Notes: generated by a model from the letters alone, not told the origin. 9,991 nucleotides of DNA from a virus (IMGVR_UViG_2690316346_000015:1-9991), one strand, 5' to 3'; numbered from the stretch's first letter, positions 620 through 8,738 are shown. Program-made: numbers and translations.

Positions 620-715
620 AATATGAAGATGATGATGACGAATGAAAATGCAAAAACTAGCCTTTTTCCGCGCCGCTCCCGCCCCGTGGCAGACCACCCC
701 ACCGGGAGGACCCGT
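620..715 (-). other. lambda-like cos site, copy A (cosQ/cosN/cosB-like)
   Basis: Minus strand reads ACGGGTCCTCCCGGTGGGGTGGTCTGCCACG GGGCGGGAGCGG CGCGGAAAAAGG...CGTCATCATCATC. This aligns closely with the lambda end junction as I recall it (ACGGGTCCTTTCCGGTGATCCGACAGGTTACG / GGGCGGCGACCT CGCGGGTTTTCGC...CTTCTTCGTCAT). The same element recurs at about 6100-6198 and 8620-8713. Confidence 0.65.
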
Positions 716-738
716 AAAAAAAGGCGGCTATCGCCGCC
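716..738 (-). terminator. rho-independent terminator downstream of the protease-capsid gene
   Basis: Minus strand GGCGGC-GATA-GCCGCC stem-loop followed by a T7 run, immediately after the TGA stop at 746-748. Confidence 0.7.
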
Positions 739-745
739 CTTGTTG

Positions 746-2659
746 TCATGCTCCACTCGATTTCAGTAATCCGCGATAGTCGAGGGCCGCGACACCTGCA
801 TCTATGCGCACCTTCCAGGCGACGCCATCAACAGTAAAGCCCTCCTGCTCCTCAAGATATGGCGTATCAATACCATCAAGATAAGCGACCTCTATCGTGT
901 CCATACCCTTCGCCGCTGCCACATACCACTCCTTGTTATTGGCTTTATCAAGACGTGGCTCAACGATTACCTCCGCCATATCTTTCACCACGTTAATGAT
1001 GCCGGGGTTCTGATTGATAGTGCCCACGCCATCAACCGGAAAGAGTGATGACGATGACAGAATGGCGCGATGTGCGGCAGACTCCAGCGCGGCGGGGACC
1101 AGGACAAATGCGGGGGTAATATTCAGCGAATCGCCGTTAGCGTCTTCCTGGAGGCGCATCAGCTTACGGGCTTCGTTAAGCCCCTCCATGTCCATATCCT
1201 TCGCAATAAGATTTTTATGATCGGCATGGAATAACGCTTTACCATCCGTAAACTTGCCGTTGCTGGTTAACAGGAGATAAACCAGATTGCCAACTGTTCT
1301 GGCAGCTGCGCGTCCCATCGCCATGGGGATTGTAGTTAACTGGGTCAGGTCATCGTTGATAATGGCCTGACGGGTAACGGAAAAAATATTCCCGTACGTG
1401 GCCAGCGCAATAGGTACACCTTTATCGCTAGTGGTGATGTATTTATATTCCGCGCCTTCCGGTACTTTATCCAGCTTTGAAAAACCATTCAGACCAACGC
1501 GCTTTGCTTCATGAAAGTTTGAAAGCGAACCGGTACGCGTCCATTTCTGGAACGTTTCGCCGCTGTCCTGCCAGCCTTTCAGTACTGATTTCTCAGCGCC
1601 ACCAGCCAGAATATGAGAAAAATCGCTGCTGCTGTGTGTAAAAGCCGCATTAACAACCTGCGAGCGATTAATAAAACCGCTCACAGTGATACCACGATCA
1701 ACCAGTGATGCCTGGGCCATTTCAAAAAGGCTCATCATCGCGTAAGGGTTGCCTCGTTCAGGGCGTTCATACCCAAGACGGGAATAAAGCCCCTGACGAA
1801 TTGCATCACCTGTTATGTTTCCGTTTCCGGCATAGATATGAGGCGAGGTATTTTTATTGGATGGCGTGGACTCGCGCCCCAGCTCGTTCAACAGCTTTTC
1901 ACGGGCCATTTCCGGTGTACATGATGCATCTTCCAGACACGCCATTTTGATCCCGTCGTAACGACTGCCGAACAAGCTAAACACTTCACTTATTCCATTG
2001 ATGCGCTTCTGTTCATTACCAGCAATATTTGCCGCTCCCTGTGGCGGTGTAATCATTCCTTTAATGGTTTCCGGCATATGTAAAAAATCTCCTGTGCGTT
2101 TCGATTCAATTCGCGCCATTGCTCTGACGGATGGCAACAATTCATCAGCAAAACCGTGCTTAAGGCATTCTTTCCCATCCATCCAGGTTTCATCCTCCAG
2201 CATGGCGGTAATTTCCTGTGCTGATTTGCCCGTTTTTCTGGCATAAGCAGGGATTAACACGGTTTCCACCTTATCCAGCAAATCAGCATAATCACGCATA
2301 TCGCCAGCATTTCCGCCAGAGATACCCCACGGCTTATGGATCATCATCATGGCGTTCTCCGGCATAACAACACGATCGCCAGCCATTGCGACAACCGAAG
2401 CCATTGAAGCCGCAACACCATCGATATAAACCGTAATGTCTGCCGGATGATTCCGTAGCAGGTTATAGATGGCGATGCCTTCAAACACATCACCACCTGG
2501 TGAATGGATCCTCAGATTGATATGTGAAACATCGCCAAGGGCTTTCAGGTCTTCCGCGAACTGCTTTGCAGTAACACCGAAGCCGCCAATCTCCTCATAG
2601 ATAGATATATCCGCCGCTCCGCGAACATCCGCCGCCTTAATGGTGTACCAGTGATTCAT
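746..2659 (-). CDS. ClpP-like prohead serine protease fused to HK97-fold major capsid protein (637 aa)
   Basis: N-terminal region carries ClpP-family motifs (IHSPGGDVFEG, GVAASMASVVAMAGD, MMMIHKPWG). The C-terminal half is a long, conserved domain that I assign to the HK97 major-capsid fold from its overall character, not from a specific motif. Long uninterrupted ORF; start ATG overlaps the upstream gene stop (ATGA). Confidence 0.88.
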   Translation of the reverse strand: MNHWYTIKAADVRGAADISIYEEIGGFGVTAKQFAEDLKALGDVSHINLRIHSPGGDVFEGIAIYNLLRNHPADITVYIDGVAASMASVVAMAGDRVVMPENAMMMIHKPWGISGGNAGDMRDYADLLDKVETVLIPAYARKTGKSAQEITAMLEDETWMDGKECLKHGFADELLPSVRAMARIESKRTGDFLHMPETIKGMITPPQGAANIAGNEQKRINGISEVFSLFGSRYDGIKMACLEDASCTPEMAREKLLNELGRESTPSNKNTSPHIYAGNGNITGDAIRQGLYSRLGYERPERGNPYAMMSLFEMAQASLVDRGITVSGFINRSQVVNAAFTHSSSDFSHILAGGAEKSVLKGWQDSGETFQKWTRTGSLSNFHEAKRVGLNGFSKLDKVPEGAEYKYITTSDKGVPIALATYGNIFSVTRQAIINDDLTQLTTIPMAMGRAAARTVGNLVYLLLTSNGKFTDGKALFHADHKNLIAKDMDMEGLNEARKLMRLQEDANGDSLNITPAFVLVPAALESAAHRAILSSSSLFPVDGVGTINQNPGIINVVKDMAEVIVEPRLDKANNKEWYVAAAKGMDTIEVAYLDGIDTPYLEEQEGFTVDGVAWKVRIDAGVAALDYRGLLKSSGA

Positions 2660-2865
2660 TGCTCACTCTCCGATGCAAAACCACTCTGATTAAGCCAGGC
2701 GTTTACGGCATGCCTGACAATCTGCGCCACACCTGGTAATGGTTGGTCAGGATGATGATTTATATGGTCGATCCTGTACTGCTTAAGGCGCATAACGGTC
2801 TGCGCATCCAGATGAACGGAACCGCCTCTGATATCGCCTGTGTTCAGGTCATTAATACAACTCAC
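2656..2865 (-). CDS. small ribbon-helix-helix-like protein, translationally coupled to the capsid gene (GTG start)
   Basis: 69-aa ORF with a predicted strand-helix-helix layout (SVHLDAQT / VMRLKQYRIDH / GVAQIVRHAVNAWL). GAGGAAG Shine-Dalgarno 5 nt upstream of GTG. Paralog at 8091-8285 in the same position relative to the second capsid gene. Confidence 0.55.
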   Translation of the reverse strand: MSCINDLNTGDIRGGSVHLDAQTVMRLKQYRIDHINHHPDQPLPGVAQIVRHAVNAWLNQSGFASESEQ

Positions 2866-2916
2866 AACAACTTCCTCTGACTGACTAAACTATACATAGT
2901 ATCGATCTACAAAAGT

Positions 2917-2957
2917 GGTAAATAAACATATTTTTACCATAAAAATCGATTTATAAT
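2917..2957. promoter_or_regulatory. divergent promoter region between the RHH-capsid operon and the AT-rich cargo gene
   Basis: GGTAAA-N10-TTTACC inverted repeat at 2917-2938, whose GGTAAATAAA half is conserved upstream of the second RHH gene at 8336-8345. Perfect TATAAT at 2952-2957 on the plus strand, about 55 nt upstream of the ATG at 3012, with no good -35. Confidence 0.3.
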
Positions 2958-3011
2958 CTTTATCATGTCTTGTATCTTCTAATCACTTGCAACCACTGAC
3001 ACAGGAAGAGA

Positions 3012-8094: not shown

Positions 8095-8285
8095 AGCCAG
8101 GCTCCTAACGTTGCCCTGTACCAGTATTCAACCGCGCTTCTCGCAATCTGCCCTTTCGTGGGTACTGGCATTCCAGGGTGATGACTTTTAATGAACTGCT
8201 GATAGCGTTCGAGCTTCTCCATAGTTCCGGCGTCTATGTGCACTGTTGCACTTTTATCCGGTTTTCTGCTGTTGTTCTCTGGCAT
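8091..8285 (-). CDS. small RHH-like protein, paralog of 2656-2865 (SD-supported start at 8285; ORF extends to 8318)
   Basis: Aligns with the first RHH-like protein (SATVHIDAGTMEKLERYQQ versus GGSVHLDAQTVMRLKQYR). GGAGG is 7 nt upstream of the ATG at 8283-8285. Stop overlaps the capsid paralog start. Confidence 0.5.
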   Translation of the reverse strand: MPENNSRKPDKSATVHIDAGTMEKLERYQQFIKSHHPGMPVPTKGQIARSAVEYWYRATLGAWL

Positions 8286-8441
8286 AAGTCTGCCTCCGTT
8301 ATGATTAACGGGCATCATTATTGATCGATAAAACTGGTAAATAAATCATTTTCTATCTAAAAATCAGATTATGTGTTTTCTGATTTTTGTCATACCAGCA
8401 AAAGAATTGACTAATTATTGCCACGCCAGCACAATTAAGAC

Positions 8442-8518
8442 TCATCATTTCGGTAGTGGCAGTATCCTTTGTCGCTGACAAAGCGCCTCCGGTGGCACCA
8501 TCGGGGCGCTTTTTTTTG
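8442..8518 (+). ncRNA. candidate small RNA (promoter-like element to intrinsic terminator)
   Basis: TTGACT (8407-8412), 17-nt spacer, CACAAT (8430-8435). Internal stem-loop CTTTGTC-GCT-GACAAAG. Strong plus-strand terminator at 8482-8518 (AGCGCC/CCG stem, 10-nt loop, T8). No protein-coding potential. Confidence 0.3.
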
Positions 8519-8619
8519 CGCCTGTTTTTTGTAAATGCTTTCGGGAACGTTCCGGCGTCGAACAAAAAACAACCTAATTCGACACTAAAAATTTTTATTT
8601 TGCCATATATCAATAACTT

Positions 8620-8713
8620 AAACTGGTGGTGATGGTGACATAAAAATCAAAAAATACGCCTTTTTCCGCGAACCGCCCGCCCCGTGGACAGGCCACCCCC
8701 ACCAGGAGTACCT
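8620..8713 (-). other. lambda-like cos site, copy C (cosB-like part more diverged)
   Basis: Minus strand GTAGGTACTCCTGGTGGGGGTGGCCTGTCCACG GGGCGGGCGGTT CGCGGAAAAAGGCG...TGTCACCATCACCACC. Confidence 0.55.
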
Positions 8714-8715
8714 AC

Positions 8716-8738
8716 AAAAAAGCCGGATTGCTCCGGCT
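8716..8738 (-). terminator. rho-independent terminator downstream of the SSB-like gene
   Basis: AGCCGGA-GCAA-TCCGGCT stem followed by T6 on the minus strand, 15 nt after the TAA at 8754-8756. Confidence 0.7.

Follow-up and report, generated by a model that had tools for sequence, protein, structure and literature searches.

The window (the whole viral stretch of 9,991 nucleotides, IMGVR_UViG_2690316346_000015:1-9991) contains two successive sets of genes, unidirectional with the exception of the HEPN gene, and three related modules (A, B and C), all on the minus strand (Table 1). The first set (E1, 1-5493) is ordered truncated primase, replication origin, HEPN gene, 69-aa ORF, capsid gene, cos A and terS, and so carries one cos together with its own DUF1441 small-terminase homologue. 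The second (E2, 5494-9991) is ordered primase, origin, 81-aa ORF, SSB, cos C, 75-aa ORF, capsid pseudogene, cos B and 93-aa ORF; it natively has two cos sites (C and B) and no terS. The two small ORFs that precede the capsid genes are paralogues. PADLOC returned no match for the HEPN gene.

Table 1. Features of the window, with positions counted from its first nucleotide.
Feature	Position	Strand	Basis
Small terminase homologue (DUF1441, 161 aa), satellite-type, cognate to cos A	3..488	-	Pfam PF07278 2e-35; PHROG 141 'terminase small subunit' 2e-57
cos A module of E1	581..745	-	repeat, motif and hairpin analyses
cos A hairpin; T-run; cosQ GGGTCCT	723-739; 716-722; 707-713	-	
cos A predicted cohesive segment GGGCGGGAGCGG; right flank CGCGGAAAAAGGC	673-684; 660-672	-	
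cos A putative TerS-binding repeats	625-641; 581-591	-	
ClpP-like prohead protease/major capsid fusion gene, 637 aa (E1)	746..2659	-	Pfam Phage_capsid_4, CLP_protease; PHROG 133; RefSeq annotation in L003
Small ORF, 69 aa, PHROG 4934, upstream of E1 capsid gene	2656..2865	-	
HEPN-domain accessory gene, 180 aa by stop codon (237 aa in L003)	3012..3554	+	
E1 replication origin, GGTGAACAG/CTGTTCACC iteron array, just downstream of primase gene	3852..4147	.	repeat search
E1 primase/helicase gene (D5_N, DUF5906, Pox_D5), 5'-truncated	4117..5493	-	domain matches, L003 alignment
E2/E1 fusion junction (5493/5494), 2-nt microhomology	5492..5495	.	alignments to L003, L004
93-aa ORF, satellite-specific, PHROG 1561 (function unknown)	5687..5968	-	
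cos B module of E2	6055..6222	-	repeat, motif and hairpin analyses
cos B hairpin; T-run; cosQ GGGTCCT	6205-6220; 6199-6204; 6190-6196	-	
cos B segment GGGCGGGTCGG (11 nt, between ACG and CGCGG); right flank	6155-6165; 6142-6154	-	
cos B inverted CATCATCATC-type repeats; IHF-like site (1 mismatch)	6108-6123 and 6055-6069; 6091-6103	-	
E2 protease/capsid fusion pseudogene, 69% identical to E1 copy	6227..8094	-	
Small ORF, 75 aa, PHROG 4934, upstream of E2 capsid gene	8091..8318	-	
cos C module of E2, directly after SSB	8577..8739	-	repeat, motif and hairpin analyses
cos C hairpin; T-run; degenerate cosQ AGGTACT (two mismatches)	8720-8739; 8716-8721; 8707-8713	-	
cos C segment GGGCGGGCGGTT; right flank	8671-8682; 8658-8670	-	
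cos C repeats; perfect IHF consensus	8623-8639 and 8577-8587; 8608-8620	-	
E2 SSB gene, 140 aa	8754..9176	-	Pfam SSB 4e-16; TIGR00621
81-aa ORF, PHROG 1231, E2 replication zone	9173..9418	-	
E2 replication origin, GGTGAACAG iterons, 93% identical to E1 origin	9441..9736	.	
E2 primase gene 3' end (Pox_D5 fragment), continues beyond window	9722..9991	-	

Every module combines a terminator hairpin and its T-run with a heptamer resembling cosQ, a core resembling cosN and some 100 nt of cosB-like DNA. A repeat search found two three-copy families (642-689/6124-6171/8640-8687 and 694-721/6177-6204/8694-8721), and the 9-mer ACGGGGCGG occurs three times, always on the minus strand, against 0.07 expected (0 of 200 shuffles reached three). 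In BLAST self-matches A and B were 76% identical over 342 nt, a stretch that takes in the 3' ends of the capsid genes, while B-C and A-C gave 83% and 80%, each over 102 nt. All three copies share the cosN-like core CCACG/GGGCGG.../CGCGGAAAAAGGC, as do lambdoid phage relatives. Read on the minus strand, the hairpin before each copy is GC-rich, with a stem of 8-10 bp, a loop of 4 nt and 6-7 consecutive U. The initial annotation had described an element of about 90 bp recurring three times behind intrinsic terminators; the recurrence and the terminators hold, but the element is longer, with cosB-like architecture running about 100 nt past cosN.

Wieczorek and Feiss (2001) reportedly defined cosQ as a heptamer, GGGTCCT, that precedes the nick by about 23 nt; its coordinates in lambda were checked (48473-48479). 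In the modules GGGTCCT lies 22 nt (A) and 24 nt (B), and AGGTACT 24 nt (C), upstream of the ACG/GGGCGG nick context, compared with 23 nt in lambda. As in lambda, the right flank is CGCGG, a hairpin-like palindrome with a T-run precedes cosQ, and, at A, a terS ATG follows about 190 nt downstream. From the first base of the predicted cohesive end (684) to the E1 terS ATG (488) is 196 nt, and lambda Nu1 starts at base 191, in agreement with the earlier placement of copy A some 200 nt upstream of a Nu1-like terS. Putative TerS-binding repeat-like elements lie at +40 and +95, and an IHF consensus is perfect in C and has one mismatch in B, with none within one mismatch in A; this layout of the cosB-like DNA may be a lambda-like one. 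Unlike lambda, the three copies contain no R-sequences, their central cohesive segment has another sequence and apparently another length, and the cognate TerS is of DUF1441 type, about 20% identical to Nu1. Compared with 2000 shuffles, A resembled lambda cos significantly (z 5.1, 3/2000) and B moderately so (z 3.0, 36/2000), and C taken alone did not reach significance (z 1.5, 233/2000). The alignment that the initial annotation had proposed as a check recovered cosQ and cosN blocks at lambda spacing, to which the direct likeness is confined, but did not carry copy C by itself.

The central segment of cosN, given earlier as 12 nt in every copy, is indeed 12 nt in A and C, but in B it is 11 nt between ACG and CGCGG, the 12-mer having taken in a base of the right flank. 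In relatives of classes B and C its length ranges from 10 to 12 nt, and so the cohesive ends are no more than predictions, the nick positions and 12-nt ends having been placed by analogy with lambda; none of the deposited phage records starts or ends exactly at the predicted nick.

The strong evidence for cos identity comes from homology to the cos regions of other lambdoid phages (E 1e-45 to 1e-60), of which each site matches a separate group across cosQ, cosN and cosB. The cos A region is 77-81% identical to the region upstream of terS, cos included, in phi458, 569R4 and mEp460. With cosB included, cos B is 86-88% identical to the cos of VT1-Sakai and Stx2 phages, and cos C 89-91% identical to that of phages 1720a-02 and CP-1639. 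In these phages the site lies between Rz/lysin genes and terS-terL; in the window, terS is found only at A. Across five classes the cosB class covaries with the N-terminal ~65 residues of TerS, as illustrated by 1720a-02 and VT1-Sakai, whose TerS proteins are identical after about residue 70 and differ in their N-terminal domains. Judged by this homology, each cos appears to be a complete cosQ-cosN-cosB cassette of the DUF1441-TerS lambdoid type, each of a different cosB/TerS specificity class. The cosB regions, previously likened to the lambda junction, match phages with DUF1441-TerS and not lambda. Taken together, the repeat families, the shuffles and the phage homology uphold three co-oriented lambda-type cos sites, which we take to be genuine packaging sites split between two satellites and not parts of one packaging unit.

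The class of cos A is kept in at least 30 satellite variants. The E1 TerS is 64% identical to that of phi458, with a satellite-specific C-terminal tail unlike that of phage TerS, and satellite terS is always followed by the 93-aa ORF, not by terL (20/20); in E2 this ORF directly follows cos B. Four classes of cos cassette occupy, in different satellites, the slot 81-83 nt downstream of SSB, and every sampled two-cos satellite is heterotypic, combining two different classes (15 loci, essentially two combinations).

The window very probably comprises the 3' (replication and late) parts of two different Gram-negative PICI-type cos satellites, fused head to tail at 5493/5494, and the chromosome carrying the fused pair is that of Shigella/E. 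coli. E1 is 99.7% identical over 5493 nt, in a gap-free alignment, to a satellite of complete E. coli genomes (L003, 12473-17965). That element, about 10.8 kb between tRNA-Ile and nfeF, encodes int, HTH, Icd-like, DUF4222, primase, HEPN, capsid, DUF1441 and 93-aa products; a further element of about 10.8 kb (L004) lies inside the split terL of a prophage. Relative to the 605-aa primase of L003, the E1 primase has lost about 145 N-terminal codons, and everything upstream of it (int, alpA and the rest) is missing. The E1 capsid fusion is a captured phage late gene, ending at the cos A terminator. E2 occurs alone between cspD and clpS in the finished Shigella sonnei Ss046 genome, and also in many other assemblies; the Ss046 copy shares with the window the frameshifted capsid gene and the pair of cos cores, at a distance of 2517 nt. 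The frameshift, a deletion of about 13 nt near 6990-7030 (repeat spacing 5460 versus 5447), splits the gene into ORFs 6949-8094 and 6227-6985.

At the junction the E2 tail jumps into codons in the interior of the E1 primase. Window positions 5494-5969 correspond to L003 12001-12473 and L004 12001-12478, where the conserved satellite tail goes on past the break for 45 nt or more, and the microhomology amounts to only 2 nt. No attachment site was found at 5493/5494, which has neither int nor tRNA. A tandem made by integrase was considered and rejected, there being no recombined attR/attL with a second int between the units. As read from these alignments, the junction is an illegitimate fusion or deletion, and the layout of three cos sites in 8 kb is a historical accident of that event. 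The initial annotation had offered small elements in tandem or a recombination product among its options, and the fusion of two different satellites substantiates this. The E2-E1 composite is probably no longer mobile.

The assignment to PICIs draws on several features. Intact relatives of E1 (L003, L013) and of E2 (L005, L006) carry int and alpA at their upstream end, outside the window; both E1 and E2 have a primase (D5_N/DUF5906/Pox_D5) followed by an iteron origin, at a position in E1 that agrees with the PICI origin described in PMC6092414; and the elements are in the range of 10-20 kb and lack tail, lysis and most head genes, the capsid fusion being the only head gene (L003, L004). Like EcCICFT073 and other cos-type Gram-negative PICIs (PMC6092414, PMC6739421), they follow a unidirectional plan of int, alpA, primase, origin and late zone with a captured capsid gene. 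EcCICFT073 likewise has lambda-like cosQ and cosN and two functional cos sites (cos1, cos2) in one element, and the terminase skips cos sites to fill 45-kb heads (PMC6092414); PICIs of this type enter full-size heads as multimers (Fillol-Salom et al. 2018, PMC6092414; 2019, PMC6739421). One or two cos sites per satellite, and the skipping of close sites by terminase, are thus already known, and the earlier objection that sites so spaced are far too close for packaging falls away. The resemblance stops at recognition: the EcCICFT073 cosB resembles no phage cosB and is read by an Rpp-TerS heterocomplex, whereas E2 has near-copies of two phage cosB regions and E1 a full-length TerS homologue. A phmmer search of the 161-, 93-, 81- and 75-aa products against all PDB chains found no significant match and hence no Rpp homologue; RppC structures are reported as solved (PMC6739421), so they should be among the chains searched. 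Nor did a Pfam search of the window find a small Phage_Nu1-domain ORF. The capsid genes also differ, being a ClpP-protease/capsid fusion here and Phage_cap_E with a decoration protein in EcCICFT073.

The satellites belong to the same element family as the helper-embedded and fis/tRNA PICIs of Tommasini, Mageeney and Williams (2023, PMC10111431), as seen in L004 within a prophage terL and L003 beside tRNA-Ile. That study described PICIs that capture capsid genes, including CLP_protease-bearing ones, two-PICI tandems, complex fusions and a complex tandem in which a long segment is duplicated; it did not analyse the cos sites of such composites. The fusion described here differs from those composites in having no internal att site at its junction and in the loss of the entire 5' half of the downstream element.

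Several other explanations of the three sites were weighed. The initial annotation had taken terminator and cos together for a mobile unit, and the same order of hairpin, T-run, cosQ and cosN does occur three times behind two types of gene (capsid and SSB). We consider a self-contained cassette of this kind very improbable, and the reading is largely refuted: homology to phage cos starts only at the T-run, 3' of each hairpin, the hairpin of C is not homologous in sequence to those of A and B, and the repeat search found no transposition hallmarks (terminal repeats or target duplications). Moreover, the identical SSB hairpin and T-run occur with no cos behind them in three related satellites (L110, L114, L128), and so the terminator does not belong to any mobile unit of terminator and cos. 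The post-SSB sites of the window and of L004 have SSB, hairpin, cosQ and cosN in common and diverge from the cosN/cosB boundary onwards. The exchanged unit is the cos/cosB cassette, and the hairpins simply terminate the capsid and SSB genes that lie upstream; they abut a T-run that in the phages, too, precedes cosQ. Scarcely credible is a single functional satellite deliberately equipped with three cos sites. The shared orientation of the sites and the gene order, unidirectional throughout, would suit it, but it is contradicted by the junction analysis: the modules are duplicated and diverged (two origins, two capsid genes, one and a half primases), a truncated primase stands in mid-window, and neither parent element has more than two cos sites.

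An assembly artefact joining satellites of different chromosomal loci is quite improbable. The usual loci do differ (cspD-clpS for E2, rcnR-thiM for E1), and the two elements share segments of 69-95% similarity. The whole arrangement, junction included, is found in NCBI contig CXEQ01000074.1 (L012; 99.99% identical), in which a second, 100% identical copy of cos A-terS lies 4.9 kb away; the junction was seen only in short-read draft assemblies, and none of the complete E. coli genomes has the whole arrangement. Against an artefact, the break falls in unique sequence with 2-nt microhomology and not in a repeat common to both elements, two samples are reported for L012, which differs from the window by one base, and finished genomes confirm both B and C on one molecule and A in its own element. 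An alternative that we regard as unlikely, yet still a plausible one, is that only cos A, with its own TerS adjoining, works, and that B and C are inert relics of past phage recombination. Shigella E2 shows clear decay: IS elements sit in its int region and primase, and the capsid gene, which B follows, is frameshifted, so its cos sites may be relics; in addition, the cosQ heptamer of C is degenerate, and cos2 of EcCICFT073 is dispensable, its deletion even raising transfer (PMC6092414). On the other side, B and C retain their phage identity through cosB, with inverted repeat pairs and IHF consensus, the C+B pair is kept in E. coli satellites outside Shigella, and both EcCICFT073 sites supported transfer when cloned (PMC6092414).

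For the intact satellites the two-element reading suggests how packaging might proceed. Helper induction would lead to excision and replication into concatemers, and the helper terminase would bind the cos whose cosB class fits its TerS N-terminal domain; at cos A, binding is proposed for the satellite's own TerS with helper TerL. Terminase would nick cosN, packaging would run towards the terS side, and nearby cos sites would be ignored until a full-size head was nearly full, whereupon a later cos would be cut. The logic proposed for E1 is that of the pac SaPIs, in which a satellite small terminase redirects the helper large terminase to its own site, with the difference that those islands use headful (pac) and not cos packaging and that the proteins are unrelated. 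As in the cos SaPIs (SaPIbov5, SaPIbov4), a satellite copy of the helper's cos would need the helper terminase; for SaPIbov4, two putative cos sites are reported in work cited by PMC6092414. Cos SaPIs differ in their Gram-positive lineage, HNH-dependent cos phages, unrelated sequences and small-capsid redirection.

We tentatively suggest, at somewhat short of an even chance, that this satellite family keeps a 'key ring' of heterotypic cos cassettes, either near-copies of the cosB of different helper lineages or a private one with its own TerS. If so, one island could be packaged by several unrelated helper terminases and Rpp would not be needed. Recombination at the conserved cosN/T-run boundaries would exchange the cassettes. 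Owing to its degenerate cosQ, cos C could act solely as an initiation site, so that mismatched termination would be avoided. The four classes in the post-SSB slot and the uniformly heterotypic two-cos elements are consistent with this suggestion, the latter representing about two independent combinations among related loci.

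The threefold repeat in the window is real and its explanation is already known: an ordinary account, that of a new member and new composite of the cos-type family of phage-inducible-type satellite islands (PICIs), is available for a striking-looking element. A repeat search found an element of ~100 nt three times in one orientation, on the minus strand (cos A, cos B and cos C). In BLAST self-hits, A and B match at 76% over 342 nt, a stretch reaching into two paralogous capsid genes at their 3' ends, and over 102 nt B and C match at 83% and A and C at 80%. The 9-mer ACGGGGCGG occurs three times on the minus strand (687, 6168 and 8685), with an expected count of 0.07 by shuffling and none of 200 shuffles getting to three. 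Read along the minus strand, each copy consists of a GC-rich hairpin (8-10 bp stem, 4-nt loop), a T-run of 6-7, the motif (A/G)CGGGTCCTCC in A and B or GTAGGTACTCC in C, a spacer of ~22-24 nt followed by CCACG GGGCGGG.... CGCGGAAAAAGGC, and ~100 nt of common architecture in which the short repeats differ by copy. Rfam at permissive thresholds returned only noise (plant miRNA and lncRNA models).

The fetched ends of lambda give the junction sequence TTTACGGGTCCTTTCCGGTGATCCGACAGGTTACG, GGGCGGCGACCT, CGCGGGTTTTCGC, in that order, and the heptamer GGGTCCT at lambda 48473-48479 is what we take to be the defined cosQ. The distance from this heptamer to the nick is 23 nt in lambda, and to the equivalent point it is 22 nt in A and 24 nt in B; copy C has AGGTACT in the cosQ place, 24 nt before that point. 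The left nick context ACG/GGGCGG and the right flank CGCGG are common to lambda and the window copies, whereas the cosB R-sequences of lambda are absent from the latter, and direct lambda similarity is confined to the cosQ heptamer and the nick-flank blocks. Strict local alignment (+2/-3) to lambda cos yielded just 9-12 nt blocks, with B and C no better than shuffles. With the milder scoring adopted in its place and 2000 dinucleotide shuffles as the control, the similarity of A was strong (z 5.1) and that of B moderate (z 3.0), but C taken singly did not reach significance (z 1.5), such that the alignment to lambda proposed in the initial annotation holds for A, moderately for B, but not for C. 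The assignment as lambda-type cos sites is nevertheless upheld by the shared cosQ/cosN blocks and by homologous phage sites in the lambda cos position. The proposed placement of copy A about 200 nt upstream of terS, as in lambda, is also borne out, the terS-like ATG lying 196 nt past the first cohesive-end base and Nu1 starting at base 191. The cohesive-end segments as first quoted needed correction in copy B, where the central segment (GGGCGGGTCGG) is just 11 nt between the conserved flanks. Because its length in relatives of classes B and C runs from 10 to 12 nt, the cohesive-end sequences are predictions only.

When each copy was searched against 50,697 phage records, three different top groups emerged: vB_EcoS-569R4, phi458, PhiR47_1 and mEp460 for A (77-81% over 77-89% of the query), VT1-Sakai together with a number of Stx2 phages for B (86-88% over 74-76%), and 1720a-02 and CP-1639 for C (89-91% over 72-73%). 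The match of A extends to the terS start, its query stopping just short of the ATG. All phages that were checked have the matching site between the Rz/lysin genes and a DUF1441-type terS (158-164 aa) followed by terL, which is the location of lambda cos. What is modestly new is that each cos, cosB included, is a near-copy of that of a different helper-phage class. Multiple alignment showed that cosQ, the cosN flanks and an A/T-rich frame are common to all classes, and that class-specific short repeats lie ~40 and ~95 nt past cosN: CGTCATCATCATCATG and inverted GATGATGAT in class B/VT1-Sakai, G(T/G)CACCATCACCACCAG and TAGTGTCGAAT in class C/1720a-02, TCGTCATCACCACCACT and ATGGTGTCGAT in phi458, and TCGTCATCATCATCTTC and GGTATGTTAAT in class A. 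Between the repeats is a match to the IHF consensus, perfect in C and with one mismatch in B. We infer that the repeats are putative TerS-binding elements, which can be likened to lambda R3-I1-R2; this reading is supported by the N-terminal ~65 residues of TerS, which covary with repeat class. Three phage-sized contigs (L058, L062 and L063) combine A-class cosB and an A-class TerS N-terminus with a phage-type C-terminus, and a fifth TerS class (MDHELKN...) has its own cosB repeats. The TerS proteins of 1720a-02 and VT1-Sakai have the same sequence from about residue 70 to the end but different N-terminal DNA-binding domains, a difference that goes in step with their different cosB repeats; by sequence the pair looks like a natural domain swap that would define packaging specificity.

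In 20/20 loci the 93-aa ORF comes next after satellite TerS (161 aa, tail ...VNEVAKQA), and in 40/40 terL comes next after phage TerS (163 aa, tail ...EEELQQEE). The 93-aa ORF, found also in the E1-type E. coli satellite L003 (12191-12472), is a constant satellite-specific partner in the slot where phages have terL. An N-terminal terL fragment was ruled out by blastp, and Pfam, NCBIfam and PDB gave no match; the protein might take part in packaging redirection.

The gene order is that of two PICI "replication plus late" zone sets in series, E2 and E1, with every gene but one on the minus strand. Capsid-gene capture is common in PICIs, which also form tandems and complex fusions (PMC10111431).

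Coordinates of features in the window (E2, then E1, in transcription order) and of comparison features in phages
Feature	Position	Strand	Remark
Primase 3' end (E2)	9991-9722	minus	first in transcription order
Iteron origin (E2)	9736-9441		296-nt array just downstream of primase gene
81-aa ORF		minus	between E2 iteron origin and SSB
SSB gene	9176-8754	minus	then cos C
cos C	8577-8739	minus
75-aa ORF		minus	between cos C and E2 capsid pseudogene
ClpP-protease/capsid fusion pseudogene (E2)	8094-6227	minus	then cos B
cos B	6055-6222	minus
93-aa ORF	5968-5687	minus	PHROG 1561; directly after cos B
Primase gene (E1)	5493-4117	minus	without ~145 N-terminal codons
Second iteron origin (E1)	4147-3852		296-nt array just downstream of primase gene
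HEPN-domain accessory gene	3012-3554	plus	between origin and late zone
69-aa ORF		minus	between HEPN gene and E1 capsid fusion
Protease/capsid fusion (E1)	2659-746	minus	intact; then cos A
cos A	581-745	minus
DUF1441/PHROG-141 small-terminase homologue	488-3	minus	after cos A
Palindrome and T-run before cosQ, lambda (L002)	48455-48470
Palindrome and T-run before cosQ, phage loci L019/L020	about 1480-1500
TerS gene, 1720a-02 (L019)	1698-2174
TerS gene, VT1-Sakai (L020)	1739-2215

E1 (window 1-5493) aligns with no gap, at 99.7% identity, to an island of ~10.8 kb present in complete E. coli genomes; the genes of that island are integrase, HTH, Icd-like, DUF4222, primase, HEPN, capsid fusion, DUF1441 and 93-aa. 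E2 stands alone between cspD and clpS in the finished Shigella sonnei Ss046 chromosome and very many other assemblies, where the exact frameshifted capsid ORF of the window is retained; in Shigella it has int, alpA, DUF4222 and also a primase broken by IS elements. As the E2 of Ss046 has the same two cos cores, 2517 nt apart as they are in the window, copies B and C sit on one finished molecule. The capsid break, near 6990-7030, is a ~13-nt deletion relative to the E1 paralogue that leaves ORFs of 381 and 252 aa, and the 381-aa product turns up unchanged in about 2900 indexed blocks of the assembly collection, S. sonnei Ss046 among them. One stop codon shortens the HEPN gene to 180 aa, against 237 aa in E. 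coli CFSAN064035; its protein matched no PADLOC defence model and gained nothing from NCBIfam, and the small ORFs gave nothing informative in either collection.

The two iteron arrays are satellite replication origins. They are 93% identical to each other, and both hold GGTGAACAG/CTGTTCACC in direct and inverted orientation, a motif resembling what we take to be the P4 ori/crr octamer TGTTCACC. A P4-like satellite, suggested by these iterons, was ruled out: psu, sid and delta genes are absent, the cos is lambda-type and not P2-type, and the layout is that of PICI/HE-PICI. A cf-PICI, considered for the capsid gene, was ruled out by the absence of portal, terL and connector genes.

Terminator and cos had been proposed to form a mobile unit in its own right, and this is refuted. 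Phage homology begins at the T-run just 3' of the hairpins (query positions 31-39 in the three cos searches), the hairpin position in phages being held by an AT-rich palindrome, as in lambda; the C hairpin shows no sequence relationship to the hairpins of A and B; and the same SSB hairpin and T-run occur without cos in three satellites (L110, L114 and L128). Since lambda and lambdoid phages have a palindrome (TGATAATCATTATCA or TGATAACCATTATCA) and T-run directly upstream of cosQ, the hairpin/T-run/cosQ order is not peculiar to satellites. The cos cassette itself, judged by comparison of loci, is exchangeable. Among 80 SSB-bearing satellite loci, the slot 81-83 nt past the SSB stop is either without cos or occupied by one of four different cos classes, and window C shares SSB, hairpin, cosQ and cosN with the post-SSB cos of a related E. 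coli satellite (L004) and diverges from it from the cosN/cosB boundary onward. All 15 two-cos loci sampled carry two different classes, these loci being interrelated and essentially of two combinations (1720a-type with VT1-type, and the class of the L004 post-SSB slot with A). Multi-cos satellites thus appear to be heterotypic, which suggests a multi-helper "key ring" of cos cassettes. The L004 satellite, from E. coli B1-56 (10706-11827, 22644-23636), has two cos and lies inside the terL of a lambdoid prophage, a helper-embedded PICI configuration, and the predicted cohesive segment of its post-SSB cos (GGGCGGGAGCGT) is the same as that of the surrounding prophage cos.

At 5493/5494 the E2 tail gives way abruptly to the interior of the E1 primase gene. 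The conserved satellite tail extends at least 45 nt past this point in both L003 and L004, the crossover has 2 nt in common and no more, and neither an att core nor an integrase was found at the junction; a tRNA/tmRNA search of the window was negative, hence there is no att marker of that kind. The junction is therefore probably an illegitimate fusion or deletion and not an integrase-made tandem. An NCBI contig (CXEQ01000074.1, GCA_001258815.1; L012) matches the reverse-complemented window with 1 mismatch in 9991 nt, so the arrangement is not unique to the IMG/VR record. The full arrangement is known from short-read drafts only: in none of the complete E. coli genomes does 80% or more of the window sit together, and GTDB species-representative genomes lack the exact junction 28-mer, as do, by string match, the fetched loci, L012 (99.99% identical) notwithstanding. 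That the three-cos arrangement is an assembly artefact is nevertheless very improbable, the junction lying in unique sequence. The same contig carries a fourth cos ~4.9 kb beyond window position 1 (L012 14138-15476), within an exact (100%) duplicate of the stretch capsid 3' end-cos A-terS-93aa, past thiM-thiD-GH25 and a truncated gntR-like gene, which suggests a ~4.9-kb tandem duplication or an assembly loop. In other Shigella assemblies, what comes after the E2 tail is either clpS with an E1-type 93-aa ORF and thiM behind it (L009 4107-6478) or an IS21-type insertion (L006 12459-14428); rearrangements of the chromosome seem to involve both satellite loci.

Cos sites 2.5 and 5.5 kb apart had been considered far too close for packaging. 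Lambda terminase is reportedly efficient at a downstream cos only once the head has almost filled (Feiss and Siegele, 1979), and because cos sites are skipped until then, these spacings pose no packaging paradox. The objection is also answered by precedent: EcCICFT073, a Gram-negative PICI of the cos type, carries two cos sites that are both functional and lambda-like in cosQ/cosN, its multimers are packaged into full-size heads by a terminase that skips cos sites, and the helper TerS is retargeted by Rpp (PMC6092414, PMC6739421). E2 has no terS gene, and when the DUF1441 protein and the ORFs of 93, 81 and 75 aa were queried against PDB sequences, neither Rpp nor another informative homologue came up. 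We propose that in E2-type satellites that are intact, cos B and cos C would be read directly by helper terminases of the VT1-Sakai and 1720a-02 classes. E1-type satellites would use a TerS homologue of their own to bring helper TerL to the private cos A, as SaPI TerS does, and the hairpins would serve as terminators of the capsid and SSB transcripts. B and C might instead be inert relics, as the dispensable cos2 of EcCICFT073 and the decay of E2 would allow, but their high identity to phage cosB makes this rather unlikely. At the present locus both elements are crippled: in E1 everything from int to the primase 5' end is gone, and E2 has a frameshifted capsid gene, to which IS insertions are added in Shigella. 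The array of three cos sites is the remnant of a fusion and not a unit by design.

E. coli and Shigella have cos-type PICI satellites in large numbers; these recombine mutually and with helpers and leave multiple phage packaging sites in chromosomes. The locus provides a testable map of three cos cassettes, each paired to a distinct lambdoid TerS/cosB specificity class, VT1-Sakai-type Shiga-toxin phages among them. If the sites are active, the map would predict which prophages mobilise these islands and adjacent cargo. The three cassettes would likewise provide natural cosB/TerS pairs with which terminase specificity can be studied beyond lambda and phage 21.

An E2-specific spacer of ~200 nt (8353-8560) separates cos C from the 75-aa ORF. 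On its plus strand, at 8478-8523, is a strong terminator-like hairpin (GCGCCTCCGGTGGCACCATCGGGGCGC then T8; -26 kcal/mol, z -2.7) with no annotated plus-strand gene upstream, and a small antisense transcript is possible there.
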